From Mobula hypostoma (taxonomy: Eukaryota), in contig NC_086097.1 of NCBI RefSeq assembly GCF_963921235.1, forward strand, positions 62,746,001-62,810,000: a DNA stretch of 64,000 nucleotides, given 5' to 3'. Below the pieces are notes generated by a model, which had not been told where the DNA came from, searched no databases, and saw only the letters and a list, made by a program, of their open reading frames with translations. A program made the position numbers and the translations under genes. This document shows, one piece after another, positions 559-61,700 of this stretch (positions are counted from its first letter, which is position 1; each line of letters begins with the position of its first letter).

Positions 559-1744
559 AATTTGATGCCTCATTTAAATCCAAGTTTCCTGGAGGCCCAA
601 ATCTATAGTCTGCTGGTATTGGCAAAGACATAAACTGAAACCAAAGTGTCTGCATTATATCCAGCATGCTAATATTGTTACTTTATTTTTTAAATTTACA
701 TTAAAAGAAAATAAAACCTAGGTTTTTTTTAAAGTCTCAAGGAAAGGACAAATGACAAAGCTTACATATTATGTATTCTTACTTTATTCTAAAATTTATG
801 CAAATCAAAAAAGCAACAAAAACAATAATTTAAGAACTCAGAGGGAGGCATATTTGTCCTGCTTGAAGTGATTTGTAAAAATCTATCTGTTGAAATAACC
901 ACTTCTCACATCATTGATTCAGCTGTTCTTTATCATGTTGACAGAGCCCTGGCATTGATTAAAGACCTGATAATAAAGGATAGCCTCAGTTAACACAGTG
1001 AAAGATTATCTGCTGATCAACAGAAGTAAGAAGACTGAATTAAAAATATCATCAGATTACATGCACTTTGATTAAATTAATTGATATGTTTTCCTTAGTC
1101 TTGAGGTTGCTTGTCCTTTACTTATGGTTCAAAGCACCATTAAGGGAGACAGAATGGATTACACACTTTATCACTGACATTTATTTTGACTTTTCAAGTA
1201 ATAGACATCTTATTTCGCAGGGCTTTTTTTTGCTGTTAAGCAGAAACATTTGAAGAGCAGACAAGTGAAATGAACGGTTGTCCAAAAAACTATAGTGATT
1301 TAGAAGCCAGTTTTAAAGCCACCTGGTTTTCTCTGTTTTGAAATTCAGAGAATACCGGAGTCTAAAATGACTGCAATTTCACTGCGTCCATGGTTTATTG
1401 CTGTCCATAGATGCTGCCTCACTACTCCATAAATACACAGCACATACAGTGTAGAGATTGTGCAAAGAGGGGGAAGTAGATAAGGAACAGTATAAGAATA
1501 ATACAAGTTTTGGATCAAGGAGCATTCATTCCAAGATGCCCCATTGAAATCATCTTGTTATAAAGGGAAAGTTTCTTCTGAAGGTCAAACCCTGATTCCA
1601 TATGAATTCTTTCTGTCTACACAACTCTCATCAAGCAGTCTGATCTCACTTGTGTTACCTACCTGGCATCTGTCATATATGGTCCTTGCTCTGCCCTATT
1701 TCACTGATTTTCTCTTGGTCATATAGGGAGATCTGTTTTTATAA

Positions 1745-2147
1745 ACACAAGGAAGCCTGTAGATGCTGGAAATCCAGAGCAGCACACACCAGATGCTGGA
1801 GGAAATCAGCCTGTCAGGCAGCATCTATGGAAATGAATAGATAGTGAATGGTTTGGGCTGAGATTGAAAAGGAAGGGGGATATTGCCAGAATAAAAGGTG
1901 GGAGGGGGGGTGAGGGGAACGAGTCTAGCTGGAAAGTGATACGTGAAACCAAGCGCGTGGGAGAGGTCAAGGGCTGGAGAAGAATGAATCTGATAGGAGA
2001 TGAAAGTGGACCATAGGAGAAAGGGAAGGAAGAGGGGACCCTAGGTAGAAGAAGTAAATGAGGGACAAGGGAAATTTCTTTTCCGAAAGGAGAAATCAAT
2101 ATTCATGCCATCAGGTTGGAAGACACGCAGAAGGAACATAAGATCTG
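1745..2147 (-). mobile_element. Penelope-like element 3' fragment (end of GIY-YIG domain plus pseudo-LTR), older subfamily
   Basis: ~2088-2125 on the minus strand encodes LQPDGMNIDFS, as in the PLE ORFs at 22752 and 23271. 1745-1860 resembles the pLTR (agatgctggaaatccagagc...gcagcatctatgg). Confidence 0.75.
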
Positions 2148-8582: not shown

Positions 8583-8638
8583 GTAAGTTTACTTTAGAAT
8601 AGAATGTGCATCATTATCGTAACTGCTGATACAGTATT

Positions 8639-14140: not shown

Positions 14141-15680
14141 GTGTAGAAGAAGCCATCCAGGGCAAATCAGCTTGTAGACTAGTACAATCACCCTAAATAT
14201 TCATTCTCTCCATCAGTCAAGCTGTGGTGTCTACCACCTACAAAATGCACCGCATTTGTTCACCTTGGCTTCTGGACCCCGGCACTAAGGAGTAGCAAGG
14301 CAAAAGTCATTTTGGACCATTTGCAGAATCCTCTTCGAGTAACACGACATCCTGTTTCAAAAATATATCACCTGTGCAGTATTGTTACTTTATCTAAATC
14401 CTGGAATTCCCTATCCAACAGCACCATTGAAGCATCTTCATTAGAAGGACTGCGACAGTTCAAAAATATAACTCACTACCATATTGTCAAGACAATTAAA
14501 ATAGGAAACATATGCTGGCCTTTTTCGGTAATATTCAGATCCCAAAAAAATAAAGAAATTGACACTGATCTTGCCAATATTGCATGAGTCCTATTTTAGC
14601 TCTTCTTTCTGGGTATAAAACACTCATATATATACCATTTCAGATGGAGAATTTCCTGATTTTTTTGTTCTGCCATATATAAATGTATTAAAATGTAGTT
14701 GTTGTTTTCAAATCCTGTGGTTAGGCCTCATAAGCATTAAAAACTTAGCTCTCTCCGAATACATATTGACTTTTAAATGTCTGTTTTGTTACTAGAGCAA
14801 GTTGAAAGATGTATTGTTAATGTGGTACAAAATAATTCATCTCATATCCAGTTCCAAACTAAAATCAAGTGGATGTGCAGTTGTCATCTCTGAGAACATC
14901 ATCTCCATCCTATCAACTGTGTTCAAGCTCCAATATTCTAGAGAGAACTGCATCTTCATAGATAATGAAGTATTGAATAAAACAATCATATATGCAGTCC
15001 CATGAGTCAGCAGCATGCTCTATGTGCAACTCTAAGAATACAAATGGAGTAAGTTTAGATCTATTTCTTTTTTGCAGTGAGGCTACTACTGGTGATACCA
15101 GTAAGGAGTAACATAACTCCAACAGTAACTGAGAAAATACTGCAAGTACTGATAATAGACTTGCTGTTTTCCACAGCAGTAATTCCAGTTAACACAAACA
15201 GAAATAAGGGACATAAAATATTTAAGCATTTTTCATCTTTTATTTAAACATGGTATCTAAAAATGAAAGTTTTACTTTCCCACAGACTGTTGCACCATCA
15301 AGAGCTCTCTGACGATCATAAAGTGAACCTCAATCTATACAATTCAAACTATGTCCCATGTGATTATCACTGATCAATCAGAATAACTGTGCTACTGCAA
15401 CTATCTTAACCACGCAGCCGTAACCTTGAGAAGAGAGCTGTTAATCAGAGGTGGTTTTACTGTCATCTTCACCAGCATCTATTGTCTCTTAAGGGAGAGT
15501 TGTTATACATGAATTCAATAACTTCGGGGCTTATTGGACTATTTGAAAAAAGTGATTAAAAATAAATTAACTCAATAAAGGAATCTGTTTGCATCTTCTG
15601 GGATATAATGAACATTCTTCACAGGATCCATTGATCAAATTATGTGATGGATAAAATGCAAGAAGCTGGAAACAAAGATA

Positions 15681-15800
15681 TGATGAAGGGTCTTAGCCTG
15701 AAGTATTGATTGTTTATTTCCATTCATAGATGCTGCCTGACCTGCCGAGTTCCTCCAGTGTTTCGAGTGTTGCTCAAAATTTCTAATGTCTGCAGAATCA
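15681..15800 (+). mobile_element. Solo PLE pseudo-LTR with a decayed hammerhead motif
   Basis: tgatgaagggtcttagcctgaag...catagatgctgcctgacctgccgagttcctccag...ctgcagaatc. Confidence 0.7.
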
Positions 15801-16272
15801 CATGCCTCTGATATTCCTTCTAATCGTGCTTAACACAATATGTATCTGGTGCTGGAGTTGGCAGTATGTTCCAAATGATAATTTTACAAGTTTTAAATAC
15901 AGAGGTGTTGAGCCTGATATTATATTACTGGAAAGTACTGACAGAGACAGTGTGATAAAATTACCAAAAGCTGTGATTCACTTAATGTATTGTATATGGT
16001 TTAATTGGTCAGGAATTTTAATTCAACATTTTTATTTAGTACAGTTCAGCCAATATCAAAAATAAATGCTGCAACTTTATTTTTCAAAATCTATCAGTGC
16101 AACTTTTAAAGAGAGTTTACTAAAGAAAGTCTCCGCCTATAAAACTGGACAAGCTTCCCATCCCTGCTAGGTGAATTGATTACCAGTGGCTATTTCCAGT
16201 ATTTGCTCTTGCTCAGAGACCTTGAAGGAGGCATCAAAGATCAAGCAGCTGTTCTTTTTTCCAACGTGCAGC

Positions 16273-17009: not shown

Positions 17010-17224
17010 CTACACACAAAATGCTGGAGGAACTCAGCAGGCCAGGCAGCATCCATGGAAAAGAGTAAACAGTCAACGTTTCGGGCCAAGACCCTTCAGC
17101 AGGACTTTGGACTGAAACGTCGACTGTTTACTCTTTTCCATGGATACTGCCTGGCCTCCTGAGTTCCTTCAAAATTTTGTGTGTATTCCATTGGTTTCCA
17201 GCATCTTCAGATTTTCTCTTTTTT
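17010..17224. mobile_element. 215-bp fold-back PLE pseudo-LTR insertion
   Basis: An inverted pLTR (17010-17106) is joined to a direct pLTR; 12-bp TSD atgaaacaaagg at 16998-17009 and 17225-17236. Confidence 0.85.
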
Positions 17225-17716: not shown

Positions 17717-18925
17717 CAAACAACAGGAATTCTGCAGATGCTGGAAATTCAAGCAACACACATAAAAGTTGCTGGTGAACGCAGCAGGTCAGGCAGCATC
17801 TCTAGGAAGAGGTGCAGTCGACGTTTCAGGCCGAGACCCTTCGTCAGGATGAACTGAAGGAAGAGTGAGTAAGGGATTTGAAAGTTGGAGGGGGAGGGGG
17901 AGATGCAAAATGATAGGAGAAGACAGGAGGGGGAGGGATAGAGCCGAGAGCTGGACAGGTAATAGGCAAAAGGGATACGAGAGGATCATGGGACAGGAGG
18001 TCCGGGAAGAAAGACAAGGGTGGGGGGGGGACCCAGAGGATGGGCAAGGGGTATATTCAGAGGGACAGAGGGAGAAAAAGGAGAGTGAGAGAAAGAATGT
18101 GTGTATAAAAATAAGTAACAGATGGGGTACGAGGGGGAGATGGGGCATTAGCGAAAGTTAGAGAAGTCGATGTTCATGCCATCAGGTTGGAGGCTACCCA
18201 GACGGAATATAAGGTGTTGTTCCTCCAACCTGAGTGTGGCTTCATCTTTACAGTAGAGGAGGCCGTGGGTAGACATGTCAGAATGGGAATGGGATGTGGA
18301 ATTAAAATGTGTGGCCACTGGGAGATCCTTTCTCTGGCAGACAGAGCGTAGATGTTCAGCAAAGCGGTCTCCCAGTCTGCGTCGGGTCTCATCAATATAT
18401 AAAAGGCCACATCAGGAGCACCGGACGCAGTATATCACCCCAGCTGACTCACAGGTGAAGTGTTGCCTCACCTGGAAGGACTGTTTGGGGCCCTGAATGG
18501 TGGTAAGGGAGGAAGTGTAAGGGCATGTGTAGCACTTGGTCCGCTTACACGGATAAGTGCCAGGAGGGAGATCAGTGGGGAGGGATGGGGGGGACGAATG
18601 GACAAGGGAGTTGCGTAGGGAGCGATCCCTGTGGAATGCAGGGGGGGGGAGGGAAAGATGTGCTTAGTGGTGGGATCCCGTTGGAGGTGGTGGAAGTTAC
18701 AGAGAATAATATGTTGGACCCGGAGGCTGGTGGGGTGGTAGGTGAGGACCAGGGGAACCCTATTCCTAGTGGGGTGGCGGGAGGATGGAGTGAGAGCAGA
18801 TGTACGTGAAATGGGGGAGATGCGTTTAAGAGCAGAGTTGATAGTGGAGGAAGGGAAGCCCCTTTCTTTAAAAAAGGAAGACATCTCCGTGTTCCTAGAA
18901 TGAAAAGCCTCATCCTGAGAGCAGA
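17717..18925 (-). mobile_element. 5'-truncated Neptune-type Penelope-like element inserted in the L1 3' UTR
   Basis: 13-bp TSD tactctatattca at 17704-17716 and 18926-18938; encodes FFKERGFPSSTI...RVPLVLTYHP and a frameshifted GIY-YIG domain, followed by the pLTR. Confidence 0.92.
17816..17851 (-). ncRNA. Minimal type I hammerhead ribozyme motif in PLE pLTR (stem I weakened)
   Basis: Minus strand catc-CTGACGA-agg gtctcgg cct-GAAA-CGTC-gact. Confidence 0.7.
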
Positions 18926-21900
18926 TACTCTATATTCATATAGATTAGATTAATTTGTATATTAGAATATAAACTATTTTATTAAAAGAAGATCTACACC
19001 CACTACCAAAGTCGAAGCCGTTTGGAAAAAAAAAGAGAAAAGAACTTATCAGATAATAAAATATGCTATTAACCAACTTCTGTACTTTACTGAGAAGTCA
19101 AAGATTATGAAAATAATTTAAAAACGGCCCCCAAATTTTGAAAATCTTGGTTAGATTCAGAAATTGAACAACGAATCTTTTCTAAATTTAGGCATGCCAT
19201 AACATCCCGTAACCACTGAGCATGATTAGGCAGAACAGCATCCTTCCATTTAAACAAAAGCGCCCTTCTAGTCATAAGAGAGATAAAAGCCAGAATGTGC
19301 AAATCAGATGTCTTCAAAATTATATCTTTGCTTCCAACAATACCAAATAGGGCAGTCAAAGGATTAGGCTTAAAATTTACTTTAAAGAGTACAGAAAAAG
19401 TTTGGAATACTTCCTTCCAATATTTTCCAAGATGTGGACATGTCCAAAACATATGAATAAATGAAGCTTCTCCATTGTTACATCTATCACAGTAGGGAGA
19501 TATATCCATATAAAAATGAGATAACTTATCCTTGGTCATATAAGCCCTACGAACCACTTTAAATTGTAGGAGGGAATGACGAGGACATAACGATGAAGTA
19601 TTAATCGATTTAAAAATCTCATTCCAAGTTTCTTCAGAAATTGAAGTCTGTAAATCTTGTTCCCAAAGATTTTTGATTTTGTCTAAAGAATAATTTCTTA
19701 TTCCCAACAACATATCATAAATACTGGATATTGAACTATTATAAAATGATTTCATCTGATACGTTCTTATCAGGACTATTAGGAAATGTATATAATTGAG
19801 ATCGCAGAAAATCTCTAATTTATAAGTACCAAAAAAATCATTTTTTGGTAAACTATATTTAGTTGACAATTGTTCAAACGAAGAAAGACTTCCTCCAACA
19901 AAGAGATCCTGGAAACATGTAATGTTCAATCCTTTCCATTGTTTAAAAACTACATCAGTCATAGAAGGCTTAAAAAATAATTTTAAAAAATGGGACTAGA
20001 AAGGGAAAATTTCAATAAACCGAAGTGTTTTCTAAATTGTATCCAAATCCTCAAAGTATGCTTGACTACCACATTTTCAGTTATCTTACGTAAGGATAAA
20101 GGAAGTGAAGTTCCCAAAAGAAAGATAGTAGAAAATTTATTAACCGAGTTAGCTTCTAAAGAAACCCTCCCGGGACAGTCCTCATGATTAATACAGTATA
20201 ACCAAAACGTGAGATTCCGTATATTAGCTGCCCAGTAATAAAACCTAAAATTTGGTAAAGCTAAACCTCCATTCTTGTTAACTTTCTGGCGATGGACTTT
20301 ATTTAATCGAGAATGTTTATTTTTCCATATGTGGGAGGATAAAATAGAGTCCAGAGAGTCAAAAAAGGATTTAGGAATAAAAACAGGTAAAGCCTGAAAG
20401 AGGTATATAAATTTAGGTAAAACATTCATTTTAATAGAATTAATTTGACCAATCAATGATAACAAAAGGGACGACCAATTTGATGATGTTCTTTTTACAT
20501 AGCAATTTAATAAAGTAAGAAAATTTTCTTTAAATAGGTATTTATAATTCTTAGTAATTGTTACCCCCAAATAAGTGAATTGGTTTCTTACAATTTTAAA
20601 AGGAAGGTTAATATCAGTTAATAGCAAATTATTCAAAGGAAAAAGTTGACTCTTGTCTAAGTTCAGTTTATATCCAGAAAACTGACTAAAGCAAGAGAGT
20701 AAAGAAAGCACAGAAGATAATGAAGTTTCGACATTAGAGATGCAAATCAATAAGTCATCCGCATAAAGTGAAACATTGTGGATAGTACCCTTTCGTAAAA
20801 TACCAGTGATATCATTAGATTCTTGACAAGCAATAGCTAAAGGTTCTAAAGCCAGGTCAAAGAGCAAAGAACCCAAAGGGCAACCTTGACTGGTTCCACG
20901 TTGAAGTTTAAATGGTTTAGAATGCTGAGAATTAGTGAGAACCCGAGCAAAAGGGGATAAATACAATAATTTAATCCATTCAATAAAGTTGGACCCAAAA
21001 TTAAATTTTTCTAAGATTTTAAATAAATAACGCCATTCAACCCAATCAAAAGACTTCTCAGCATCTAAGGATATCACACACTCTGATATCTCCTTCGAAG
21101 GAGAGTAGATAACATTTAATAATCGATGAATATTAAAATGAGAATAACGATTTTTAATAAAACCAGTCTGATTGTCAGAAATGATAGATGGTAAGTTATC
21201 TTCCATCCTGTGGGCCAGAATTTTAGATAGAATTTTAACATCAACATTAAGTAAGGAAATTGGTCTATATGAAGAACATTCAGTTGGGTTCTTTTTTTTT
21301 AAGGATAAACAAAATAGAAGCTTCATAAAAAGATTGTGGCAACCAACCTAGCTTAAAAGCATCTGAAAAAACTGAACATAAATGAGGCATAAGCAAAGAA
21401 GAAAAAGCCTTATAAAATTCTCCAGAAAATCCGTCAGGACCTGGAGCTTTCCCTGAATGCAGTGAACGTACAGCCTCGGCTCTTTCTTTGTGAGAAATAC
21501 ATTGATCCAGCTGTTTTCTGTTATCAACAGAAAACGTAGGGATATTTATTTGGTCTAAAAATTTATCCATTACAGTATTATATTTAAGAAGATCAGAACT
21601 ATAAAGCTTAGAATAAAATTCTCTAAAAGTATCATTTATTTCTAAATGATCAATTGTCCTAATACCATCAGCTTTGTAAATTTCTTTAATCTGTCATTTA
21701 GCACTAGAAGTTTTAATTTGGTTAGCCAATAATTTACCTGTTTTATCTCCATGATTATAAAATTGACTTTTATCCTTTAGGAGTTGAGTTTCAATAGGGT
21801 ATGTTAATAAAAAAAATCATGTTTAGTTTTAATTTCAACCCATCTTTTATATAAAACAGGCTCTGAAGTTGAAGCATATACTTCATCTAATTGTTTCAGC

Positions 21901-22423
21901 TGATTAGCTAAATTAATTCTCTCTTTATTAGCTTTTTCTTAACACTTGTAGTATAAGAAATGATTTGTCCTCTAATATATGCTTTAAAGGCATCCCATAT
22001 GACAAGACTAGAAGTCTCCCCCACTGTGTTTGTCTTCAAAAAAAGAGAGTAATTTGCCTCTCCAAGAACTTTAAGAAATCTTTGTCAGATAACAAAGTTA
22101 AATTAAAACACCAGAATCTGTTTGTCTGAGGAAAACCAGAAAGATTTATGGATAAAAGCACAGGAGCATGGTCAGAAATAGCAATCTCTTTATATTCACA
22201 AGATTGAACTAATAGAATCATTTGGTTATCAATAAATAGTCAATTCTGGAATACGTATGATGAACATGAGATAAAAATGAATATCCTCTATCTGCTGGAT
22301 TTAAGAAATGACATATATCAACAATAAACAACAGGAATTCTGCAGATGCTGGAAATTCAAGCAACATACATCAAAGTTGCTGGTGAACGCAGCAGGCCAA
22401 GCAGCATCTATAGGAAGAGGCGC

Positions 22424-22459
22424 AGTCGACGTTTCAGGCCGAGACCCTTCGTCAGAACT
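22424..22459 (-). ncRNA. Minimal type I hammerhead ribozyme motif in PLE pLTR
   Basis: Minus strand agtt-CTGACGA-agg gtctcgg cct-GAAA-CGTC-gact. Confidence 0.8.
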
Positions 22460-22751
22460 AACTGAAGGAAGAGTAAGTAAGGGATTTGAAAGCTGGAGGG
22501 GGAGGGGGAGATGCAAAATGATAGGAGAAGACAGGAGGGGGAGGGATAGAGCCAAGAGCTGGACAGGTGATAGGCAAAAGGGGATACGAGAGGATCATGG
22601 GACAGGAGGCCTAGGGAGAAAGACGGGGGGGGGTGACCCAGAGGATGGGCAAGAGGTATATTCAGAGGGACAGAGGGAGAAAAAGGAGAGTGAGAGAAAG
22701 AATGTGTGCATAAAAAGGAGTAACAGCTGGGGTACGAGGGGGAGGTGGGGC

Positions 22752-23309
22752 CTAGCGGAAGTTAGAGAAGTCAATGTTCATGCCATCAGGTTGGAGGCTA
22801 CCCAGACGGAATATAAGGTGTTGTTCCTCCAACCTGAGTGTGGCTTCATCTTTACAGTAGAGGAGGCCGTGGGTAGACATGTCAGAATGGGAATGGGATG
22901 TGGAATTAAAACATGTGGCCACTGGGAGATCCTGCTTTCTCTGGCGGACAGAGCGTAGATGTTCAGCAAAGCGGTCTCCCAGTCTGCTTCGGGTCTCACC
23001 AATATATAAAAGGCCACATCGGGAGCACCGGACGCAGTATATCACCCCAGTCGACTCACAGGTGAAGTGATGCCTCACCTGGAAGGACTGTTTGGGGCCC
23101 TGAATGGTGGTAAGGGAGGAAGTGTAAGGGCATGTGTAGCACTTGTTCCGCTTACACGGATAAGTGCCAGGAGGGAGATCAGTGGGGAGGGATGGGCGGG
23201 ACGATTGGACAAGGGAGTTGTGTAGGGAGCGATCCCTGCGGAATGCAGAGAGAGGGGGGGAGGGAAAGATGTGCTTAGTGGTGGGATCCCGTTGGAGGTG
23301 GCGGAAGTT
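22752..23309 (-). pseudogene. PLE ORF C-terminus (Cys-rich linker plus GIY-YIG endonuclease), left arm
   Basis: PCKRNKCYTC...GVIYCVRCSRCGLLYIGET...RFAEH...LEEQHLIFRLGSLQPDGMN; frame open but 5'-truncated with no RT. Confidence 0.9.
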
Positions 23310-23837
23310 ACTAAGCACATCTTTCCCTCCCCCCCTCTCTCTGCATTCCGCAGGGATCGCTCCCTACACAACTCCTTTGTCCATTCGTCCCCCCCATCCC
23401 TCCCCACTGATCTCCCTCCTGGCACTTATCCGTGTAAGCGGAACAAGTGCTACACATGCCCTTACACTTCCTCCCTTACCACCATTCAGGGCCCCAAACA
23501 GTCCTTCCAGGTGAGGCATCACTTCACCTGTGAGTCGACTGGGGTGATATACTGCGTCCGGTGCTCCCGATGTGGCCTTTTATATATTGGTGAGACCGGA
23601 CGCAGACTGGGAGACCGCTTTGCTGAATATCTACGCTCTGTCCGCCAGAGAAAGCAGGATCTCCCAGTGGCCACACATTTTAATTCCACATCCCATTCCC
23701 ATTCTGACATGTCTATCCACGGCCTCTTCTACTGTAAAGATGAAGCCACACTCAGGTTGGAGGAACAACACCTTATATTCCATCTGGGTAGCCTCCAACC
23801 TGATGGCATGAACATTGACTTCTCTAACTTCCGCTAG
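23310..23837 (+). pseudogene. PLE ORF C-terminus (GIY-YIG endonuclease), right arm
   Basis: Mirror copy of the left-arm ORF (VIY...YIGETGRRLGDRF). Confidence 0.9.
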
Positions 23838-24129
23838 GCCCCACCTCCCCCTCGTACCCCAGCTGTTACTCCTTTTTATGCACACATTCTTTCTCTCACT
23901 CTCCTTTTTCTCCCTCTGTCCCTCTGAATATACCTCTTGCCCATCCTCTGGGTCACCCCCCCCCGTCTTTCTCCCTAGGCCTCCTGTCCCATGATCCTCT
24001 CGTATCCCCTTTTGCCTATCACCTGTCCAGCTCTCGGCTCTATCCCTCCCCCTCCTGTCTTCTCCTATCATTTTGCATCTCCCCCTCCCCCTCCAGCTTT
24101 CAAATCCCTTACTCACTCTTCCTTCAGTT

Positions 24130-24165
24130 AGTCCTGACGAAGGGTCTCGGCCTGAAACGTCGACT
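24130..24165 (+). ncRNA. Minimal type I hammerhead ribozyme motif in PLE pLTR (intact core)
   Basis: agtc-CTGACGA-agg gtctcgg cct-GAAA-CGTC-gact: stem I agtc/gact, stem II agg/cct, palindromic ACGT in place of stem III; predicted cleavage after C24161. Confidence 0.85.
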
Positions 24166-25406
24166 GCGCCTCTTCCTATAGATGCTGCTTGGCCTGCTGC
24201 GTTCACCAGCAACTTTGATGTATGTGGCTTATATCAACAATACCACATTTCATTAGAAATGAATGGATAAACAAAGCTGATTTATTAAGTGTCACTGGTT
24301 TAGAAGAAGACTGATCTAAAACTGGATCTAACCAGCAATTAAAGTCTCCTGCCATCACCAATGCGCGCAAACTCAGATCAGGCAAAAACAAAAAAAAAAC
24401 GCTCAAAGATTCTGGATCATTTATATTTGGAGCATAAACATTAGCAAATACCAACAATTTATTTTCTAATTTCCCTGATACTATAACAAATCGTCCATTA
24501 GTATCAGAAACAACCTTGTTTTGAACAAAGGGAACTGTATTTCCTATAAAAATTGAAACTTCTCCAGCTTTGGCCTGAAAACTTGAATGAAAGTCAACCC
24601 TCTCCATCAGCTAAAAAGGTGTGAGTTATCAGAATTGTGTACATGGGTTTCTTGTAAAAAAAAAATTGAGACCTTAAATTTTTTAATATAGGCAAAAATC
24701 TTATTTTGTTTCAAAGGATGATTTAATCCTTTCACGTTAAGACTAAGTAACTTAATATTATAATCCATTTTATTATTATTTAAAAGAAAAGTTAAAAGGA
24801 TAATCTTTAAGAAGATTAGTAAAACTAAACAATAACCTATGAGATAAGGAAACCAAACAACAGGTTTGACTAAGGATCCCAAACAGCTTCAAAGAAAAAA
24901 AAACCCAAACACTCTCCCCCTTCCCAAAGAGAGAAAGTCGACCAAAGAAAGTCGACGCCTACAACTAATAGCGATATCCCCCCAAAAATCCTGCTGGCTT
25001 AGCTCCAAATAAATTACAAAGTTTGAAATATTCCAACCTAGTCAGAACAACAGATAATAAAGAAACAGTTAATTCTGAAATCAAAAACTCTAGAAAAGTA
25101 AGTATAATACAAAATAATATGGACACTCAGAATATTGGCTTATTAAAATCTTATTCTCAAAGTAAAACCGTAAGAGGTTCTAAAAGAAAATTAACTACAA
25201 GATTCACCAGAGACAAAATACACAATTATTCATGTAAGTTTTTGTTAAACAGCTCTAACATGACACTTTTAAACTTAGCAGACAAAGTAATAGCACACTA
25301 AAGTCTTTCTCAAAATAAATCCTTACAAAGTTCAAAAAGAAAGAGTTAAGTACAAAGTTTAGCAAAGGTAAAATAAACAGTTATTCATGTAACAAATAAT
25401 AAGCAA

Positions 25407-26257
25407 TCACCTTACTGACTCTAAATATTTCTGGGCCTGGAGACTCTAATGGAAGCATTTTTGTGATCCATCCTGCAGTGTAATTCTGAGCTTCGCCGGA
25501 TACAGTAGAGAAGTTTTTAAATCCTTGTTGAAGAACTCTGACATGACGTTTTTAAACTTAACACGCTCCCTCATAATCTCTGCTGAGAAATCTACAATGA
25601 TTCTAATCTTTTTTCCATTAAAATTAATTACACCTTTCCGATGAGATTCACGAATTATACGGTCCTTTGTTTGAAACTCATGAAAAGCGATTACCACTGA
25701 ACGAGGTTTGCTTGCAAACATTCTATTTCCAGGTACTCTGTGCGCTCAGTCGACCATTGGTGTCGATTTTAAAATATCAGGAAATAACTGAACCAGAAAG
25801 TTTGTAAAAAATTCTGTAGGACGATCACCTTCAGTTAACTCTTTGAGACCAAGAATTCGTACGTTATTCCTTCTATGTCTGTTTTCTAAATCAGTAATCT
25901 TCTGTCTTAGTTCGTTGTTAACCTTGGATTGTTTTTCATAACGCTTTTGCAGATCGTCCATTTTCTCATCCAGAATCGACACGATTTCTTCATTCTCTTT
26001 ATTCGTTTATCTTGCTCAGTTGAGATTTCTTGAATAGAATCCAGTTTTGTACTTAATTGTTTAATTTCAGAGCCAAGTTGTTGAAACTCTTCGGAGGATT
26101 CCTTCCTGAATCGTTAAAATTCCTCGGAGGATTCTTTTCTGAATCGCTGATTTTCCTCAGACGCTTCATTTCTGTGCTTTTGCATCAATTCGATAATAGC
26201 ATCCAAAGACGTAGAAGAATCTTCTTCTTTTTTACCTTTAGCAGTTCTTGTCGTCAT
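25407..26257 (-). pseudogene. L1 ORF1p (coiled coil, RRM, CTD), frameshifted
   Basis: ATG at 26257 (MTTRTAKGKKK), then DLENRHRRNNVRILGLKE, PRSVV, KIRIIVDFS and LLYPAKLRIT in successive fragments. Confidence 0.85.
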
Positions 26258-26603: not shown

Positions 26604-26739
26604 GGGTCCTGCTGAAGGATCTCAGCCCAAAATGCCAACTGTACTTTTTTTCCATAGATGCTGCTTGGCCTGCTGAGTTCCTCCAGCATTTTGTGCGTGT
26701 TGCTTGGATTTCCAGCATCTGCAGATTTTCTCATTTGTG
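26604..26739 (+). mobile_element. Solo PLE pseudo-LTR with a decayed hammerhead motif
   Basis: gtcctgctgaaggatctcagcccaaaatg...tccatagatgctgcttggcctgctgagttcctccagcattttgtg...ctgcagattttctc. Confidence 0.8.
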
Positions 26740-27099
26740 AAGAGATGGTTAAGATTTCCTGTTCAGATGTTCAGATGTGACTTGAGATATCCCTGTCCAG
26801 TGACAATATAATCATGCTGCTTTCTGATTACAGAAGAGGTTTTCACCACATGAAAACAGGTACCTTATTCATATGTAGGTATTGAACTCACAGGACGTCA
26901 TTCAGATTGCAATGAGGTTTTAGCTGCAGGCCATCACAGCGATGCCACTGCTAAAATGATAGAAGTGCACTAGAAAGAAATTGAGGTTGGTCCCTGCCGT
27001 GGGACTTTATTGATCTTCCTCACTCATTAACCCATTCACCATGATCAGTATTTCTTGTCATATCAGGGGCCTTTCTCTGGGGTCTTCCATCACAGCCCA

Positions 27100-28459: not shown

Positions 28460-28546
28460 CAAACAACAGGAATTCTGCAGATGCTGGAAATTCAAGCAAC
28501 ACCCATCAAAGTTGCTGCGTTCACCAGCAACTTTGATGTGTGTTGC
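28460..28546. mobile_element. 87-bp fold-back insertion of the young PLE terminus
   Basis: caaacaacaggaattctgcagatgctggaaattcaagcaacac..., then its partial reverse complement; TSD ttagattaattgg at 28447-28459 and 28547-28559. Confidence 0.9.
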
Positions 28547-32424: not shown

Positions 32425-32439
32425 TGTGTTGTCTCTAAC

Positions 32440-33011: not shown

Positions 33012-33751
33012 CTTTGTGTGTAGGGTTGATTGCAAACATTTTGTCACCAGTCAAGGTAATATCATCAATGCACAACTGAGTGTTCACATTTATATTGGTC
33101 AGACAACTTTTTTTTTGGATTGGTTGGCTGTTGCGCAGGCCCCTAGCCTCCGCTGGGCCGCGGCCAGCTGGATAGCTGAGTGGAGACTGCCCCAAACACT
33201 ATGTAGGACAGATGGGGAGAAGACTGTCCACTGGCCTACATGAACAACAGCTAACCTTAAGAAGACACAATCCTCTGTCAAGAAGGAGACAAGTTATCTG
33301 GGAAACTACAAAATTTCTGGCAGAAGCACAAAACAAAAAATCAAGATCACTCTTTGAAGCTTGATTCTCAAAGGAAGACTCTATTAACAAGCTTATTGAA
33401 CTGGATGCAATTTATGAACCTGTATATCTGCTTGATTGGGCTGAGGGGTGAGCCATGAACACCCGGGGAACCAAGGCTCACAATGATTGATACCCAGTGG
33501 TATGGCCAGCAGAGATCACTCAGCTATCCAGTTGGCCGGGACCGAGCGGAGACCAGTGGCCAGCACAACAGCCAACCAATCAGAACAACAAGTCGGACCA
33601 ATATAAACATGAGCACACGGTAGAAACAGCACTCAATTGCACACTGATAATGTCACCTCAACTGGTGATGAAACATTTGCGGCCTACCCTCCAGCCTCGA
33701 CGAACAACCATACAAACAAGCAGCCAACCCGAGCTACCAATCTTTCGAACA
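33012..33751 (+). mobile_element. Second Penelope-like family (Poseidon-like): inverted pLTR, GIY-YIG fragment, direct pLTR
   Basis: ~33185-33422 translates (with frameshifts) DCPKHYVGQMGRRLSTGLHEQQL...WETTKFLAEAQNKKSRSLFEA*FSKEDSINKLIELDAIYEP. 33020-33180 is an inverted copy of ~33518-33690. Possible TSD gatcag(a/g)at. Confidence 0.8.
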
Positions 33752-39748: not shown

Positions 39749-42294
39749 CAGTCTAAATTATCTCGCCCTACAGTGTTGACTGTCTGTTTCCTTCCACAAA
39801 TGCTGCCTGATCCACTGAATTCCTCCAGCATCTTGTTTCCTCCCTAATTAATTGCTGGTTATTTTAAAGTCACTGCTAGAAATTTTGCTTTAATTCATTG
39901 TGCTTTTTGTCAGGCTTTGTCATCCATTTTGAAAACCTATTCAGGTCAAAATATTCAGGTCTGTTGAGCTTACATCACTCAGAACATGGCAGATCTGTGT
40001 ACAGCTATTTTTTTAAAATTTCATGTCAAGATTATTTATTTAATGGATTTAAAAGAAGCCGCACTGAGGTGAACTGGGGAATGGAGAGGGGGAAAAAGAA
40101 GCAGGAAAAAACAACCACTTTTGGAAAATGTCCTGCAGTAAAAGAATGGAAGTATTTCCAGCATTTTTTAATTTGGGATTTGCAGCAACTGCAGTGCTTT
40201 GTACCTCACATCTCCAGCATTGACTGATTCTTCGTTTCCTCTTACCTCTTTCAGCTGCTTCTGTTTGCACTTCCTCAAGGATGAGCTGTGCACAACAAGC
40301 CTTTGGCACCTTCACGCCTGTGTTATTCACTCTCTCGGTCTCCTTCTTTTTCATGCCTATTCCATCCATCCACCCATCTCTACAAATTAATGCATGCTTG
40401 ATTTATAACCTTTTCCGTTTCTGGTGACAGGTTGAATATTTTGGGGGCCTGTGAAATTTCCTGCACTTCAAGTTGTTTGGGCTGGAGGTGAAGTACTTTC
40501 TTTGTTCATTGGTCAAATGTTCAAGGTTGTCATTTCCCATCATTTTAAAAATCATTTCAAATCAACCTGGGGCACCCATCTCTACTGCCAATTTGACAAT
40601 GAAAATGCATTCACAACAGTGGAAAGTGGAGAATTACTTCTCATTTTCATTGCTTACTGAGCCTGGTACTTATGGGTTTCATTTTTAGTTGCCTGTTGAG
40701 TTTTGAACCAGGTTCTGAGACTGATAATGCCAGGCCCAGAAGATCCTAATTTGTCAGCCAAATCACCATGAACAAAGTCACTCAAGTTTGCGGGAGAGGA
40801 TCAAGTCTAAGTTCCTGACTCCTTTCAGACTAAGTCAGGAGACAGTTAATATGAAATAAATCAAACTGTCCAGCAGGTGGGGAGAGGAGAGCAGGCTATT
40901 GGAGAGGAGGGAAATTCAGAAAAATAGAGGTCTAAGGAATCCTGAGTAGCAGACTGGACACAGGAAGAGTCAAGAGGTGTGACAGAATGGTGGGGTGATG
41001 TGGGCAAATTTGGGAAGGAGGGTTTGGGTGAACAGATCAAAGAAGGGAGAGGGATGAGAAAGGGAATGGGTAAGGTTGAGAAATTGGAACTCAGAAGAAT
41101 TGGCATCAGGATCAATGTCAGCCCTTGGATTTGGGAGAGAGATCAGGAATGTTGACAGGGATTTTCTAGGCCATTGGAACAGGAGACAGCATGGACATTT
41201 GATCATGTATTTTACTGACATCCTGTGGAATTATTTCCCCAGGTGTTTTCTGTAATGGCCATTCCAGATACTACACGGTCGAAATTCACCTGCATTACTC
41301 CAAGAAGAGCATTGCAGAAGGGAAAAAACTGAAATGTGTGCTTCTGATCCAGAAACAATGAGGGTCTCGAACATGCAGCTCTTTGATCTGGAAATGATCA
41401 CTAACACAATTTATTCTGGGTTAAATCTATTTTCAGCTGCAGTGCTTAGAAAGGAATAATGCCATGCGATTGAATTTCTCCAAGATACTATATATACTCT
41501 TCTACTATATCTAAAGTGTAGGAGCATATTGACTAATAACTAAAATGCCGCAATGAAACCAAATGGACCATCAGTCAGTTAATCAGATCCTTTGAGAAGC
41601 TTTCTACATTAACAGGTTTTAAATTCAAATTAAGGGCAACAAGAAACACATGAAAGTTTATAATATCTGCAATTTACTAGACTTCTTAGCAATTGAGAGA
41701 GGCAGATGAAATGTAGTAGGAGACTCATCCACAAGTCTCAAGTTCAAGTCCAGCTAGGTACAATTTTAAACTGGAAATGCCTGAGAAATACTATGTCAAT
41801 GACAACTTGAGTATCAGCCAACTTTGACTGGAGCATATTAGGCGTGAACTAACACCTGTGTATACTTGGATGTTTACTGGACCAAAATAAATTCTACAAT
41901 AATAGCAGCTATTGGGAAGTGACAGGGCACAGAGGAAGCCCTTCAAATGAAACCCTGATACCTGAGCCTCTCGAGAAAACTTCTAATCTCAGGATTTCCT
42001 TGTGGCTGTTGAGATTCACCCTTCTGGGTCCTGAGTAAAATTCTTTGACTTTATGCTGTGCTCCTGCTTCTAGAAACCAAGTAACAACTCCTCGGTTGTG
42101 GCGAGCGTGCTGGCTCCAATTTAGAAATGTCATCACAGAGCCACAGTCTTTCGAGGACTCGCAAGCACTCACTGGTGATCTTGCCAATCTCTTTGGTTCA
42201 ACTATAGAAGGAACCCAGACACCAGAAAAATTGAAGTTCTTGAATAGAGGGAAATGTGAAGTCTGTACATTATATTCCATGTTTGAACAGTTCA

Positions 42295-43123: not shown

Positions 43124-44472
43124 ATACAATAAATAAAATAGAGACCAGTTGGAATATGCAACTTGCCACCACATGGAGAAGTGAAGCTACATTTTAGAAG
43201 CTAGAAAAGGGCATAAATCAGAATAACATTGAAAATGCTTTGAAAGGAGTGGAGAAAGTAGAAGAAACACCAACATTGGCCTATCGGACTAAATGGTCTG
43301 TTTCTCAATTCTACTTTGTTAACTCATTCTAAAATCTCAATTATGAACTGAAAGGATTGGTACAGTAGAGCTGCTTTAAGTGTCTGCCAAAATTACTGTA
43401 AATTAGACAGGAACTTCCAATGGCTGTAAGTATAATTTTCCACCATTTGTAGTTATCATTTGTGTGCATGTTTGACCTTGTTAATAGATAACCGTAAGCC
43501 TGCTCATTATTCATCATATGATTGGTTATTAGAAACTATAATCTTGCATATATTTCACACAAAGCTTTATGTGGAAAAGTCTAAAAATAATATTTAATGG
43601 TATCATTGCAGAATACTTTTATTTGCCTTGCAAGACTAATCCCTGAACCTAGGCCATGGACTAGTACCGAAACCTTCATAAATGTTGTACCTTCTTAAAA
43701 ATTAAAAAGATTTTTATTTGAAATTTCACTTGGATCTATAATGACACTAGTGATGGAGCTGAGCTGTAGGTGGTGCTGTGAATCAGTGAAGACACACAGC
43801 ATACTAATATATTAACATCCCCTATCATTGCAACGAGATTCAAAATTCAAGATTATTATCATGTCCAGTACACAAATGTAAAGGAGAACAAAATATTTGT
43901 TACTCCAGATCTAATGCAGCATGAAAGAAACATAATAAGAAAAAGAACACAATAATAAAAATAAACACAATAAATATAAATACATAAGATAGCTTATGTC
44001 CATAAAGTGATACTAGGCATAGGAGGTTTGTATGTAAAGCACTGTTAAGGAACATTATAATCCTGAACAAAATACACATTATTGTGGTTTCTTCACAGTC
44101 ATTATTTTATTTAATCTTTCATGTATGGTTTATTTTCATGGGACTCCTAATTGCATTACCATAAATCCTAATGCACTTGTTAAAAAATGGCATTAAAAGG
44201 AGCAAAATGTCTGTCAGAGAGCAACTAATTCTGAAAAATTTAAGAGAAAAATTTCTAAAATGCAGTTCTCTGTCCCTCATATTCACACATCCTTTTATTT
44301 TCATTTTATTTGTCACTGGCTAAGACATGGGCCTGTGAAGTGGGGGCCAATCCTGTGCTTTGTATATAGGCAAAGGAATATGGGTGCAGGTGCAGATCTC
44401 ATCGGTGGAGTTTTAAATGAAATTAAAGCTAAAATTGATCTTTTCAGACATTATCAATTCATCAAATGGAGG

Positions 44473-44570
44473 ATAACACACAAAACACTGGAGGAACTCT
44501 GCAGGTCAGGCAGCATGTCTGGAAAGGAATAAAGAGTTAAAGTCTTGGGCCCAGACTTTATCAAGAGTCC
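44473..44570 (-). mobile_element. Solo PLE pseudo-LTR fragment
   Basis: acacacaaaacactggaggaactctgcaggtcaggcagcat... Confidence 0.7.
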
Positions 44571-52400: not shown

Positions 52401-52416
52401 TTCATGACAGGACCCA

Positions 52417-54309: not shown

Positions 54310-55409
54310 TACAAAAAGAAGAAATAATAATAATAATAAACAAGTAAGCAATAAATATCAAGAACATGACGAGAAGAGTCTTTGAACGTGAGACCATAGG
54401 TTGTGGGTACATTTCAATGATGTGGCAAGTGAATTTGAGTGAAGTTATCCCCTTTGGTTCAAGAGCCTGATGATTAAGGGATAGTAACTTTTCCTGAACC
54501 TGGTGGTGTGAGTCCTGAGGCTCCTGTATCTGCTTTTTGATGGCAGCAGTGAGAAGAGAGCATGTCCTGGGTGTTTGGGGTCCTTGATGATGGATGGTGC
54601 TCTCTTGTGACAGTGCTTCAAGTAGATGTGCTCTGTGGTTGAGAAGGATTTAACTTTGATGGAGTAAGTCCAATCCACTATTTTTGATAGGATTTTCCAT
54701 TGAAGAGCAATGCTGTTTACATACCAAGCTGTGATACAGCCAGTCAGTATAATCTCCACTAAACATGAATAAATGTTAGTCCAAGTTTTAGATATCATGC
54801 TGAATCTCTGCAAACTCCGAAAGAAGTGTGTTTTCTTCATAATTGCACTTACGAGCTTGGCCCAGGACAGGTTCTCCATAATAACATCAAGGAATTTAAA
54901 GTTGCTGACCCTCTCCACCTCTTATCATCCGATGAAGACTGGCTCATGAACTTCTGGTTTTCTTCTCCTGAAGTCAATAATCAGCTCCTTGGTCTTGCTC
55001 CTTGATCTCCATCCTATATGCTGATTTATCGCCACTTTTGATCCAGCCTGTGACAGTGGTGTCATCAGCGAACCTGAATACGACTTTGGAGTTGTGCATA
55101 GCCACACAGTCACAAGTGTGTAGCCAGCTGAGCAACAGACTAAGCAACAAGCCTCGTGGTGCCCCCGATGCTGATGGAGATCATGGAGGAGGTGTTGTTG
55201 CCAAGTGAGAGTCTGCAAGTGAGGAAATCGAGGATCCAATTGCACAAGGAGCTATTGAGGCCAAGGTCTTAGTGCTTATTGATTAGTTTTGAGAGGATGA
55301 TGGTATTGAATGCTGAGCTGTAGACGATAAAGAGCATCCTGATGTATGCATCTTTGTTGTCCAGATGTTCAAGGGTTGAGTGAAGAGCTAATAAGATGAA
55401 ATCTGCTGT

Positions 55410-55549
55410 CATCCTCTTTCCACAACAGTCCTGATCTTTTCCTGTCCCGATGAAGAGTCTTGGCCCAAAAAGTCGACTGTTTGCTTTTTTCCATGGATGT
55501 TGCCTGGCCTGCTGAGTTCCTTCAGTAACTTTGTATGTGTTGCCTTGAC
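55410..55549 (+). mobile_element. Solo PLE pseudo-LTR insertion lacking the terminal tail
   Basis: TSD atctgctgt at 55401-55409 and 55550-55558; decayed hammerhead ccgatgaagagtcttggcccaaaaagtcgac. Confidence 0.8.
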
Positions 55550-56499
55550 ATCTGCTGTGAACCTGGTGCTCCGGTAGGCAAATTGGAGTAGATCTAAGTT
55601 GCTTCTCAGGCAGGAGTTGATATGTTTCACCACCAACCTTTCAAAACACTTCATCACTGTGGATGGAAGTGCTACTCTGTGGTAGTATTTGACGCAGGTC
55701 ACCACATTCTTCTTGGGCACAGGTATAATTGAAGCCTTCAGGTGGGTACCACACACTGCCAAGGTGAGAGGTTAAAGATCTCAGTAAACACTCCAGTTAG
55801 TTGATCAGCTGTTAGTATTTGCCTAGGTACCCCATCTGGGCTGGATGCTGCTTTTCATGGGTTCACCTTCTTGAAAGCTGCTTGCACGCCAGCTCCAGAG
55901 ACTGAAATCATAGGATCAATGGGGAATGTCGGAGTTTATTATCGTTCCTCCATGTTTTGATCATCAAAGTGAGCGTAGAAGGCATTGAGGTCATCTAGAA
56001 GTGAACCCCTGCTGTCGCTCATGTCACTTAATTTAACTTTATAAGAGGTGATAGTATTCAAGCCCAGCCACAACTGTCAAGCATCCTTCACTAATTCAAT
56101 TTCTTTCCAAAATTGCCACTTTGCCCATGAGATGGCTTTCTGGAGATCGGATCTGGACCTCTTGTAACTTTCTTGGTTACCAGATTTTAATGCCGCTGAT
56201 CGGGCTCTCAGCACATTGTGAATTTCATGATTCATCCAAGGCTTCTGACTGGGGAAGATTCTGAATTACTTTTTGGGGACACATTCATCTACAACTGTTT
56301 AAATAAAGTCCGTTAAACTATGGTGTATTCATTCAGATCCATAGATGAGTCCTTGAACATAGCCCAGTCCACCAACTTGAAGCAATACTGTAGCCACTCC
56401 TCTGCCTCCCATGACCACCTAATCTCTGGAGCTTTGCTCTTTAGCCAAGTGGCATATGCAAGTAGGAGAAAGACTTTTGTAACAATTTACTTTCATGAA

Positions 56500-56632
56500 G
56501 ACAAGTGATGCCGCAGATACTAAATATCCAGAGTAACACACACAACACACCGGAAGAACTCAGCAGGTCAGGTGGCATGTATGGAGAGGAATAAAGAGTC
56601 GACATTTCAGGCTAAGAACCTTCATCAGAACT
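56500..56632 (-). mobile_element. Solo PLE pseudo-LTR with hammerhead motif at 56597-56632
   Basis: Minus strand agtt-CTGATGA-aggttcttagcct-GAAA-TGTC-gact. Confidence 0.8.
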
Positions 56633-58715: not shown

Positions 58716-61700
58716 GTCATAGAGAACACTACAGCACAGAAACAGGCCATTTGGCCCATCTAATCCATGCTGAACTATCATCTGCCTAGACCCATTGACC
58801 TGCACCCAGACCATAGCTCTTAACACACCTCCCAACACACCTCCCATCCGCATACATATTTAAATTTCACTCAGGTGTTGAAATCCAACCCGAATCCACC
58901 ACTCCCACTGGCTGCTCGTTCTACACTTTCAACAGCCTCTGAATGAAGAAGTTTCCCCTCATGTTCCCCTTCACCAGTTCACCTTTCATCCTTAACCCAC
59001 CTCCAGTTCTAGTCTCACCCAACCTCAATGAAAATAGCCCTCTTGTATTTACCCTAAGAAAACATCTCATCATTTTGTTGCCTCTATTAAATCTCCCCTC
59101 CTTCTCCTGCACTCTGGGGAATGAAGTCCAGACCTGCTCAACCTTTCCCTAGAACTCAGGTCCTCAAGTCCCAGCAATATCCTTGTAAATTTTCTCTGCA
59201 CTCTTTCAATCCTATTTACATTTTTCCTGTAGATACGTGATCAGAACTGGACATACTACTCTAAATTAGGCCTCACCAATGTTTTATATAACTTCCCGAC
59301 TCCTGTACTCAATACTTTGATTTATAGAGGCCAATGAGCCAAAAGCCTTTTTTACAACCCTGTCTACTGTGACACCACTTTCAATGAATCATGAACCTGT
59401 ATTCTGAGATTTCTCTGTTCTTCCACACTCCTCAGTGCCCTACGACTCACCGTGTAAGTCCTATTCTGGTTTGTCCTCACAAAGTGTAACACCTCACATT
59501 TGCCTGTATTAAGTTCCATGTGTCATTTTCAGCCCATTTTTCCATCTGGTCCAGATCCTGCTGCAAGTTTTAATAGCCTTCCTTGTTCTCTATTATGCCC
59601 CTAACTAGCTGTCAACAACAAATTTGCTGATACAGTATATTACATTATTTTCCAGATTGTTGATATAGATACCGAACAACAATGGACTCAGCACTGATCC
59701 CTTTGGCACACCACTAGTCACAAGCCTCCAGTCAAAAAGGCAACCATCTACTGTCACTCTCTGTCTTCTCCTCTGAAGCCAGTGTCCAATCCACTTTACT
59801 AACCCATATTGAATGGCAAGTGACTGAAGCTTCTTGACCAACCTCCCATGCGAACCTTGTCAAAGGCCTTGCTAAAGTCCATACAGACAACATCCACTGC
59901 CTTGTCTTTATTGACTTCCCTTATAACTTCCTTAAAAAACTTTTTTATGATTGGTTAGGCACAACTACACACACAAAGCTATGTTGACTCTTCCTAATCA
60001 GTCCCCATCCATCCAAATACTTATATATGTGGTCCTTTAGAATACATTCCAATCAGGCTCACTGGCCTGTAATTTCCCAACTTATTTTTAGAGCCTTTCT
60101 TGAACAACAGAACAACATTACTATCCTCCCATCGTCTGGCACATTACCCATTGCTAAGGACATTTTATATATAGCTCTCCTAGGGTCCCTGCAATTTCTG
60201 CACTAGCCTCCCACAAGGTCCAAGTGAATTCCTTGTCAGGCCCTGGGGATTTATCCACCCTAATTTGCCTCAAGACAGCATACATCTCCTCCTCTTTAAT
60301 CTGTATACAGTCCATGAACTCACTGCTGCTTTGCCTAACTTCTCTAGACTCGGTGTCCATCTCCTGAATAAATACAAATGGAAAGAATCCGTTTAAGATC
60401 TCCTCCACCTCCTTTGGCTCCATGCATGGAGGACCCTGTAATCTTCAAGAGGACCAGTTTTGTCCATTGCAATAATTTTGCTCTTAATATATCTGTCAAT
60501 GCCCTTAGGATTCTCCTTCACTTTGTCTGCTAGAGCGAACTCATGTCTTCTTTAAGCCTTCTCAATTTCCTTCTTAAGTGTTTTCTTGCATTTCTTTTAC
60601 TTCATGAGTGCCTCATTTGTTCCTTCCTGCCTATACCTGCTTTGTACCTCTTTCTTCTTCTTACCAAGGGCTTCAGCATCTCTCAAAAACAAAAGTTTGC
60701 TAAACCTGTTAGACTTGCCTTTTATTCTGAAAAGAACAAACAAACTCTACTCTAAAAATTTCACTTTTGAAAGCCTCCCACTTAGCAGCCACACCTTGGC
60801 CTGTAAACAACCTATCCCAATCCACAGCAGCACACACAAAATGCTGGAGGAGCTCAGCAGATCAGGCAGCATCTATGGAAATGAGTAAATAGTCAATGTT
60901 TTGGGCCGAGACCCTTCTTCAGGACTCATTCTACACTTGTCAGATCTTTTCTATTTCCATCAAAATTGGCCTTTCTCCAATATAGAATCTCAGCCTGAGG
61001 ATCAGGCCTAATTTCTCCACAATTATATTGAAACTAATGACATTATGATCACTAAATGCACAGTATTCCCCTACTCAGACTTCTGTCATCAGCCTTGTCT
61101 TGTTCCCTAATAGATCTAGTGTTGAACTCTCTCTAGTTCGGACTTCTTTGAAGTGATGAGGGAAACTTCCCTGAATACATCTGACAAACTTTACCATATC
61201 CAGCACTTTTACAGTATGGGGGTCCCAATCAATATGTGGAATGTAAAAATCACCTACCATCACAATATTATGTTTCTTGCAACAATCTCTAATCTCTCTA
61301 CAAATTTGCTTTTCTAAATCCTGATGACTATTGGGTGCTCCATAATATAAAAATCCCATTAACATGGTAACCCCTTTCTAATTCCTTAGTTCCACCCATA
61401 AAGCCTCAGCAGATATGCTGTCCAATCTCTCCTGTCCGAACATTGCTGTGATTTTTTTCCCTGATTAATAATGCCACCCCTCTCCCTTTAATCACTCTTG
61501 CTATATCATGTGTAAATCAACGAAGCTCTTGAACATTGAGCTGCCAGTCCTGCCCCTCCTGCAACCAAGTCTCATTACAATATCATAATTCCACGTGTTG
61601 ATCCATGCCCTAAGCTCACCTACCTTTCCTACAGTACCCCTTGCATTGAAGTATGCACAACTCAGAACATTATTCCCACCATGCCCAACCTTTTCGAATG

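Follow-up and report, generated by a model that had tools for sequence, protein, structure and literature searches.

A minimal hammerhead motif in the pseudo-LTR of a Penelope-like element insertion of Mobula hypostoma

Does a motif with the letters of a hammerhead ribozyme act as one where it now sits, and how did it come to be there? The question is raised by positions 24130-24165 (+) of a 64,000-nucleotide stretch of Mobula hypostoma DNA from contig NC_086097.1 (the window, below), which read AGTC CTGACGA A GGGT CTCG GCCT GAAA CGTC GACT. A preliminary description had taken these letters for a type I hammerhead with a palindrome instead of helix III and a predicted cut after C24161, and the sequence is as described; it had further placed the motif in the pseudo-LTR of a Penelope-like element (PLE), which is borne out by the end of a GIY-YIG ORF, a tail, and a TSD. 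We posit that the motif is very probably a dimer-type minimal hammerhead of a PLE pseudo-LTR that was passively spread and that the flagged copy, the one at 24130, lies in a dead insertion.

Letters, fold, and covariation

Sequence, predicted fold, and alignment register identify the flagged stretch, part of a PLE pseudo-LTR, as a minimal type I hammerhead motif whose cleavage is a prediction (Table 1). Its helix II differs from the 3-bp AGG/CCU stem first proposed: a bulged A is followed by four pairs, GGGU/GCCU, and a CUCG loop. In the isolated 36-mer, this register has predicted pair probabilities of 0.86-0.95 versus 0.02 for AGG/CCU, and in an alignment of 21 distinct rows (drawn from four window copies and 19 outside loci, those with a 28-base match among at least 123), its first pair forms in 19 rows versus 5 of 21 in the other register. 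An extra nucleotide and a highly conserved G10.1-C11.1 pair are described for minimal hammerheads in PMC4209133, in agreement with the bulged-A register. Within the window, positions 10.1-11.1 form a G-U wobble in insertions A, B, D, and G and a G-C pair in C, E, F, and H. Across the 21 rows, helix I covaries, all four of its pairs having changed on both sides.

The outside loci (at least 123) come from a metagenome scan whose pattern specified the core and some of helix II and put no constraint on helix I. Among the matches listed, helix I reaches at least 4 bp in 62 of 109 distinct loci; with its partners shuffled, the count averages 12 and peaks at 22, and with the partners slid it is at most 7. 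The core letters were fixed by the search and related loci are not independent, so it is the helix I result alone that counts, and not as a probability. Among the same matches, 97 of 109 loci have C at position 11.1 (U in the young window family), and 11 of 109 adjoin PLE protein remnants within 900 bases; on one contig, two motifs (L005 and L006) flank PLE coding sequence. The outside loci are animal-like and have the same hammerhead architecture as the window copies. The hammerhead pattern had no match in viral contigs, and a flank-based pattern had none in metagenome or viral contigs. Two metagenome loci, L040 and L047, each have two motifs on opposite strands about 55 to 60 nt apart, like short inverted insertions.

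Could so short a motif be a chance match? The loose pattern CTGANGA-gap-GAAA is not enriched in the window (9 matches versus 7.8 expected), and the 36-mer is no more stable than its own shuffles (z -0.37). A structural descriptor, in contrast, finds three matches with helix I of at least 3 bp, or four with at least 2 bp, while 200 first-order Markov controls averaged 0.03 and 0.07 and never exceeded 1. The motif also has a fixed position in the PLE and shows covariation in independent loci. The descriptor controls and the helix I pairing outside the window refute a chance origin, whose probability we regard as negligible. Rfam gave no hammerhead match at the gathering threshold, and no hammerhead family appeared among 48 rows at an E of 10 or less on 22000-24500. 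Rfam miRNA-family matches at 23170-23415 fell below their own thresholds and were rejected as reflecting the hairpin centre of insertion A.

Table 1. Positions of the motif, its carrier, and related insertions in the window
Feature	Position	Strand	Remarks
Minimal type I hammerhead motif	24130..24165	+	by sequence, fold, and alignment register
Helix I	24130-33 / 24162-65	+	
Core CUGACGA	24134-40	+	
Bulged A	24141	+	
Helix II	24142-45 / 24150-53	+	CUCG loop
GAAA	24154-57	+	
Palindrome ACGU	24157-60	+	in place of helix III
Predicted cut	after C24161	+	position 17
Pyrimidine tract	24100..24129	+	predicted to pair with core; ends in AG resembling a 3' splice site
Insertion A	22326..24229	.	head-to-head inverted, 5'-truncated PLE; 921-nt inverted repeat, 98%; TSD
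Tailed arm of A	22326..23309	-	ORF end, CT-rich UTR, hammerhead, tail
Tailed-arm hammerhead of A	22424-22459	-	cut predicted after 22428; one U.G pair in helix I
Tail of A	22326-22362	-	34-37 nt; without counterpart in plus arm
Tail-less inverted arm of A	23310..24229	+	bears the flagged motif
TSD of A, left copy	22314..22325	+	12 bp
TSD of A, right copy	24230..24241	+	12 bp
PLE ORF C-terminal remnant	23310..23837	+	linker CKRNKCYTC (CX4CxxC), GIY-YIG endonuclease
Mirrored PLE ORF remnant	22752-23309	-	
Broken L1-type LINE	19105..26006	-	hosts A in its endonuclease domain; RVT_1, zf-RVT; Transposase_22 weak
Insertion B	17717..18925	-	5'-truncated PLE with tail; 13-bp TSD 17704-16 / 18926-38
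B hammerhead	17816-17851	-	intact core, 2-bp helix I
Insertion C	17010..17224	.	short inverted insertion; 12-bp TSD
C tail-less arm	17010-17106	-	CUGCUGA (A6C) core
C tailed arm	17107-17224	+	starts in loop II
Insertion L	28460..28546	.	87-bp inverted insertion without hammerhead; 13-bp TSD
G	56495..56632	-	short old copy; core intact, palindrome changed to AUGU
E	26605..26741	+	short old copy; A6C core, G12A, U16.1C
D	15676..15802	+	short old copy; C3 and A15.1 changed
F	55409..55545	+	short old tail-less copy; U4C, G12A; candidate TSD 11/12 matches
H	60826..60926	-	short old tail-less copy; G12A, palindrome lost
I	44470..44570	-	degenerate copy, absent from the preliminary list
J	39750..39836	+	degenerate copy, core deleted or eroded
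K	1741..2142	-	older-subfamily copy; ORF end, CT-rich UTR, hammerhead 5' half deleted

Insertion A and its relatives in the window

The flagged motif lies in an inverted insertion, A, whose TSD copies match perfectly and whose arms differ at 15 of 920 sites; A and insertion B differ at 42 of 976. It stands 290 nt downstream of the GIY-YIG stop codon and about 100 nt ahead of the tail end. The GIY-YIG domain is recognized as PF01541 at E values of 1.7e-4 and 2.8e-4, just under the curated cut-off. The closest relatives of the ORF remnant are a Mobula protein (91%) and a Hypanus protein (81%), followed by shark proteins, and the remnant aligns to the C-terminus of an 892-aa protein with reverse transcriptase (RT) and GIY-YIG domains (45%). 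Neptune and Nematis elements are distinguished by a CX2-5CxxC linker ahead of the endonuclease (PMC8557442). Based on linker and endonuclease, we provisionally assign the carrier to the Neptune-type PLEs, the RT core being absent from the window. The window has no full-length or tandem PLE copy, and the active parent element is thus putative. Two gene models of other species touch on the same region. A zebra shark model (P0007) reads past the PLE ORF, and its last residues match the translation of the hammerhead motif, which suggests the same motif position in sharks; a Hypanus model (P0004) runs from the last residues of the PLE ORF straight on into different sequence, possibly the mark of a splice donor that other subfamilies have at the PLE stop codon.

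The host of A is a near-complete but broken, AT-rich L1, whose reading frame reads ...GIVDI on one side of A and IVDICHFLNP...YSRIDY on the other, the two sides sharing the TSD; B lies just beyond the end of its ORF2. Both young PLE insertions are thus in, or at the end of, an AT-rich L1.

How many relatives does the motif have nearby? All nine copies on the preliminary list exist: a mismatch scan found near or exact copies at 24130(+), 22424(-), 17816(-), 56597(-), 17071(-), 60891(-), 55443(+), and 26605(+), and BLAST and a profile search added 15681(+). The list was incomplete, however, as the profile search finds 16 segments at an E of 0.0012 or less, from 13 insertions in the window; the profile was built from 9 of those 16 segments, four weaker matches (E 0.23-0.8) are not counted, and searching the reversed window with the same profile gave no match. 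Nor are the copies said to be intact three independent ones. The nine copies represent eight insertions, since 24130 and 22424 belong to one, and the copy at 17816 (B) keeps all 11 core positions but only 2 of the 4 helix I pairs. The copy at 56597 (G), called near-intact, likewise has an 11/11 core but a palindrome changed from ACGU to AUGU. In all, 11 of 11 core positions are intact in both A arms, B, and G; the palindrome is kept in both A arms, B, and C and lost in D, E, F, G, and H; and core, both helices, and palindrome are complete only in the two arms of A, where helix I has its 4 bp.

The older copies have decayed neutrally after insertion. A test set beforehand, that of excess core conservation among genomic copies, did not show any in the old ones: in six older copies (a small sample that left out I, J, and K, with the motif eroded or deleted), the core has changed at 9 of 66 positions and the flank at 44 of 352 (P = 0.84). 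In this small sample, no selection on the core is shown; three of the nine core changes are G12A, as would be expected of CpG decay. That dead copies decay neutrally says nothing against a working ribozyme in the source elements. One core variant, CUGCUGA (A6C), is common to the separate insertions C (17071-17106 -) and E (26605-26640 +), which also have similar tails. Among 40 of 86 variable places listed for family contigs, one falls inside the motif.

The very high genome-wide abundance that had been predicted is supported. On a 611-base stretch, 181,483 contigs of DNA run X1 align, as do 13,259 contigs of X9 and 8,686 of X14 (runs only guessed to be RNA), none of these being copy numbers. 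At 22325/22326, a fixed 3' end, 608 X1 contigs exit into unrelated A/T-rich sequence, and just upstream of the motif contig depth falls, by a factor of about two in X1 and by more than that in X9 and X14. The window's 16 segments and 13 insertions amount to about 200 per Mb, which, in a genome that we presume to be 1-3 Gb, would give some 10^5 relics if this density is typical.

Perfect TSDs of 12 to 13 bp surround four insertions, A, B, C, and L, while the candidate TSDs of D, E, G, H, and I do not exceed the background and their 5' limits are thus unproven. Each of the inverted insertions A, C, and L has one tail-less arm, and these end at about one common site. In C and L, the arm without a tail is the one that reaches further 5', and the tail is confined to the other; in L, the tailed (-) and tail-less (+) arms meet in a 5-nt self-complementary overlap. 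Because each arm of C and L holds sequence that the other lacks, neither can be a plain fold-back copy of the other, which implies two priming events in these two of the three inverted insertions; A is compatible with either route. The short copies C, D, E, G, H, and possibly I have their 5' ends no more than about 5 nt from the helix I 5' strand (15676, 17106, 26605, 44570, 56632, and 60926) and not at the cut site; for these five or six, random truncation offers no explanation. The starts of F, J, K, and L lie at other places. The same 5' strand is also the loop of the masking hairpin predicted in the young family.

Other repeats share the window. A Tc1/mariner-type element at 30839-32433 has long ends in inverted orientation (419 nt at 92%, and a further 66 nt); at 31701-32066 (-) it retains a Sleeping Beauty-like HTH remnant. 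Further LINE fragments with RT or endonuclease remnants, presumably CR1-like, lie at 45118-47364 (+), 3486-4036, 63755-63894, 59608-59859 (-), and 61078-61377 (-). Inverted arms of 75-77 nt (83-84%) form the pairs 33106-33593 and 50321-57982; the first, 334 nt apart, is possibly a MITE. A long CT-rich low-complexity tract spans 49186-49763.

A proposed history and its alternatives

In our model, two motifs of an active tandem element would pair through ACGU, which would supply helix III and form a double hammerhead. By analogy with characterized PLEs, this dimer would cleave itself after C17, although only weakly, and the PLE protein would probably assist. Anatomy, TSDs, and fold register were observed here, and cleavage in the active element is taken from published work. 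Minimal hammerhead monomers are reported to be inactive and dimers weak (PMC4209133); in PMC11167929, PLE hammerhead cutting depends on protein and is dispensable for insertion in vitro, where catalytic mutants were unimpaired, and RNA-seq showed no ends at the cut site. One of nine natural Xenopus dimers is reported to cut and eight not (bioRxiv 10.64898/2026.07.22.740005). Reverse transcription would start about 100 to 135 nt downstream of the motif, at the tail end or 34-37 nt inside the tail; because this lies downstream, most 5'-truncated copies would include the motif, which would thus be spread passively. The templates of insertion would be uncut RNA, and this agrees with the 16 segments, none of which has its 5' end clearly at the cut site (one fragment, 1385-1419, begins near it and is too decayed to judge).

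Once in the tail-less arm of a dead inverted insertion, the flagged copy would probably be silent, because read-through RNA of either strand makes the complementary arm first. In the predicted fold of the whole insertion, 35 of 36 bases of the (+) motif and 36 of 36 of the (-) motif pair with the other arm. A promoter inside an arm could escape this pairing, but not the upstream pyrimidine tract, and its product would be a monomer. The tract is predicted to lower the probability of helix II from 0.96 to at most 0.01 once at least 15 nt of upstream sequence are included, a local masking matched by 6 of 200 shuffles. As a general feature, upstream masking was rejected: 11 of 104 outside loci fall in the lowest 5%, with a mean rank of 0.44, so the effect is local only, and no locus of the 104 has the tract with its AG. 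An AG beside helix I is reported as a splicing case in Drosophila virilis (PMC4209133). Splicing at this AG was tried and rejected, the sole joint, 22459-22765, having no GT-AG ends, occurring also in the DNA run, and resting on one contig per run. In the lowest-energy fold of the 36-mer monomer, the core is paired with CGUC, and ViennaRNA gives the active dimer -9.5 kcal/mol versus -28.3 for another duplex, ignoring tertiary contacts of the core; all of these folds are nearest-neighbour predictions that include neither tertiary contacts nor protein.

Can dispersed copies nonetheless cut host pre-mRNAs, in cis or in trans, as the preliminary description had suggested for a sense copy? Two copies are complete, the family is abundant in X9 and X14 (the guessed RNA runs), such that trans partners could exist, and related full hammerheads are reported to be conserved in amniote introns (PMC3088659). 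Against this, a Pfam scan of 290 of the 368 ORFs of at least 55 aa (most skipped ORFs lie in known repeats, and short exons would be missed) found no host exon, only transposon families and two weak matches. Both were rejected: Mis12 falls within the L1 ORF1 region, and CysS_C at 56080-56265, for which no homologue was found, is a peptide that we take to be a LINE fragment. The predicted masking by the other arm and the tract, the monomer fold, the neutral decay of the old copies, and the published behaviour of monomers, of the Xenopus dimers, and of RNA ends at the cut site point the same way. Cleavage of host RNA at this locus is unlikely, and as an account of the dispersed copies at large we consider it highly improbable. 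If transcribed, the 920-bp, 98% inverted repeat of A inside the L1 would give long double-stranded RNA from either strand. Such RNA would be a likely substrate for editing or small-RNA production, and it is a more likely host effect than ribozyme cleavage. Might the motif pair two RNA templates rather than cut? ACGU and a strand-swapped helix I would then hold two RNAs in a dimeric complex, both nicked DNA strands would be primed, one at each start site, and the pyrimidine tract would keep the core inactive until removed or displaced. The two primings in C and L speak for this, as do the A arms: at 13 sites the minus arm departs from the X1 majority, and at 8 of these both arms have the minority letter, absent from most family contigs, and B has the majority one, which points to one source. 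However, conversion between the arms could explain the shared alleles, inverted insertions are also made by Naiad PLEs, which lack canonical hammerheads, and the masking tract is not general in the 104 outside loci; we judge template pairing very unlikely.

Two further possibilities concern the family rather than the locus. The copies of 100-140 nt might not be random truncations but a short non-autonomous element of SINE-like or retrozyme-like kind, with the hammerhead at the start of its RNA. The clustered 5' ends near helix I suggest as much, and so do the non-pyrimidine upstream flanks of D, E, G, H, and I, in which tblastn found no ORF remnant, and the drop in contig depth in X1, X9, and X14. 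But the same 5' ends would result if reverse transcriptase halted at the local hairpin, other subfamilies with divergent UTRs may account for the depth drop, and the matches listed (6 rows per run) show no loose-end peak at the helix I edge. With the motif in no tandem array, the TSDs of D, E, G, H, and I at background level, and four copies starting elsewhere, we rate a short element as unlikely. Alternatively, is the motif a vestigial catalyst in ray families, kept as a protein-binding or structural signal or as a hitch-hiker? This is compatible with passive spread at the locus and is somewhat less remote, although still doubtful. C and E share CUGCUGA, and A6C is reported to lower Mg2+-dependent cleavage strongly in another hammerhead (PMC7151607; its effect is also described in PMC3088659); the young family has G10.1-U11.1 where most of the listed outside loci have C; insertion in vitro withstood catalytic mutations (PMC11167929); and Naiad PLEs spread without canonical hammerheads (PMC8557442). 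On the other side, the young family retains the palindrome, both helices, and the core at all 11 positions, distant animals still show the core and the helix I covariation, the anole motif is reported to cut when protein is present (PMC11167929), and A6C rests on two copies only. A dimer-type hammerhead, passively spread, remains our preferred reading.

Hammerheads of Penelope-like elements elsewhere

This kind of hammerhead is already published, and the window adds an ordinary PLE member in a ray. Among the titles listed, we found no publication on ray PLE hammerheads; subscription literature lay outside the search, and novelty is therefore not claimed. A genome with very many copies of several ages allows statistical tests of the role of PLE hammerheads. 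Where do 5' ends fall relative to the cut site, are A6C subfamilies mobile, and are sense copies depleted in introns? The CUGCUGA copies C and E may belong to one such mobile subfamily with an altered core.

Minimal hammerheads have been reported in metazoan PLE pseudo-LTRs, including the fish elements Xena, Poseidon, and Neptune (Cervera and De la Pena 2014, PMC4209133). Relative to those described there, the young window family pairs G10.1 with U rather than C, two older copies have the CUGCUGA core, and helix II has 4 bp rather than the 7-8 bp of Schistosoma. If typical, 13 insertions per 64 kb would far exceed the 4,000-9,000 motifs of coelacanth and Xenopus (PMC4209133), which are descriptor matches, while most window copies are decayed.

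Non-LTR retrozymes also bear type I hammerheads on short noncoding units related to PLE pseudo-LTRs (PMC7229834; bioRxiv 10.64898/2026.07.22.740005). They form head-to-tail tandem arrays (PMC7229834), whereas the window copies are single or head-to-head, and none of 16 TRF rows (period limit 500) places the motif within a tandem repeat.

In structure, the insertions resemble Neptune and Nematis EN+ PLEs: a C-terminal GIY-YIG domain after a CX2-5CxxC linker, 5' truncation, an adjacent inverted copy, a one-sided tail of 30-40 bp, a short TSD, and insertion into another retrotransposon (Craig et al. 2021, PMC8557442; Arkhipova et al. 2013, PMC3846280), with TSDs of 12-13 bp here versus 8-10 bp in the rotifer examples and full-length or tandem copies absent from the window. 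In their probable mechanism, the insertions resemble PAc, the Poseidon element of Anolis carolinensis, in which two reverse-transcription starts delimit the tail, targets are AT rich, and the RNA template is uncleaved (Frangieh et al. 2024, PMC11167929); PAc itself is a Poseidon-clade element with an ORF that begins within the hammerhead.
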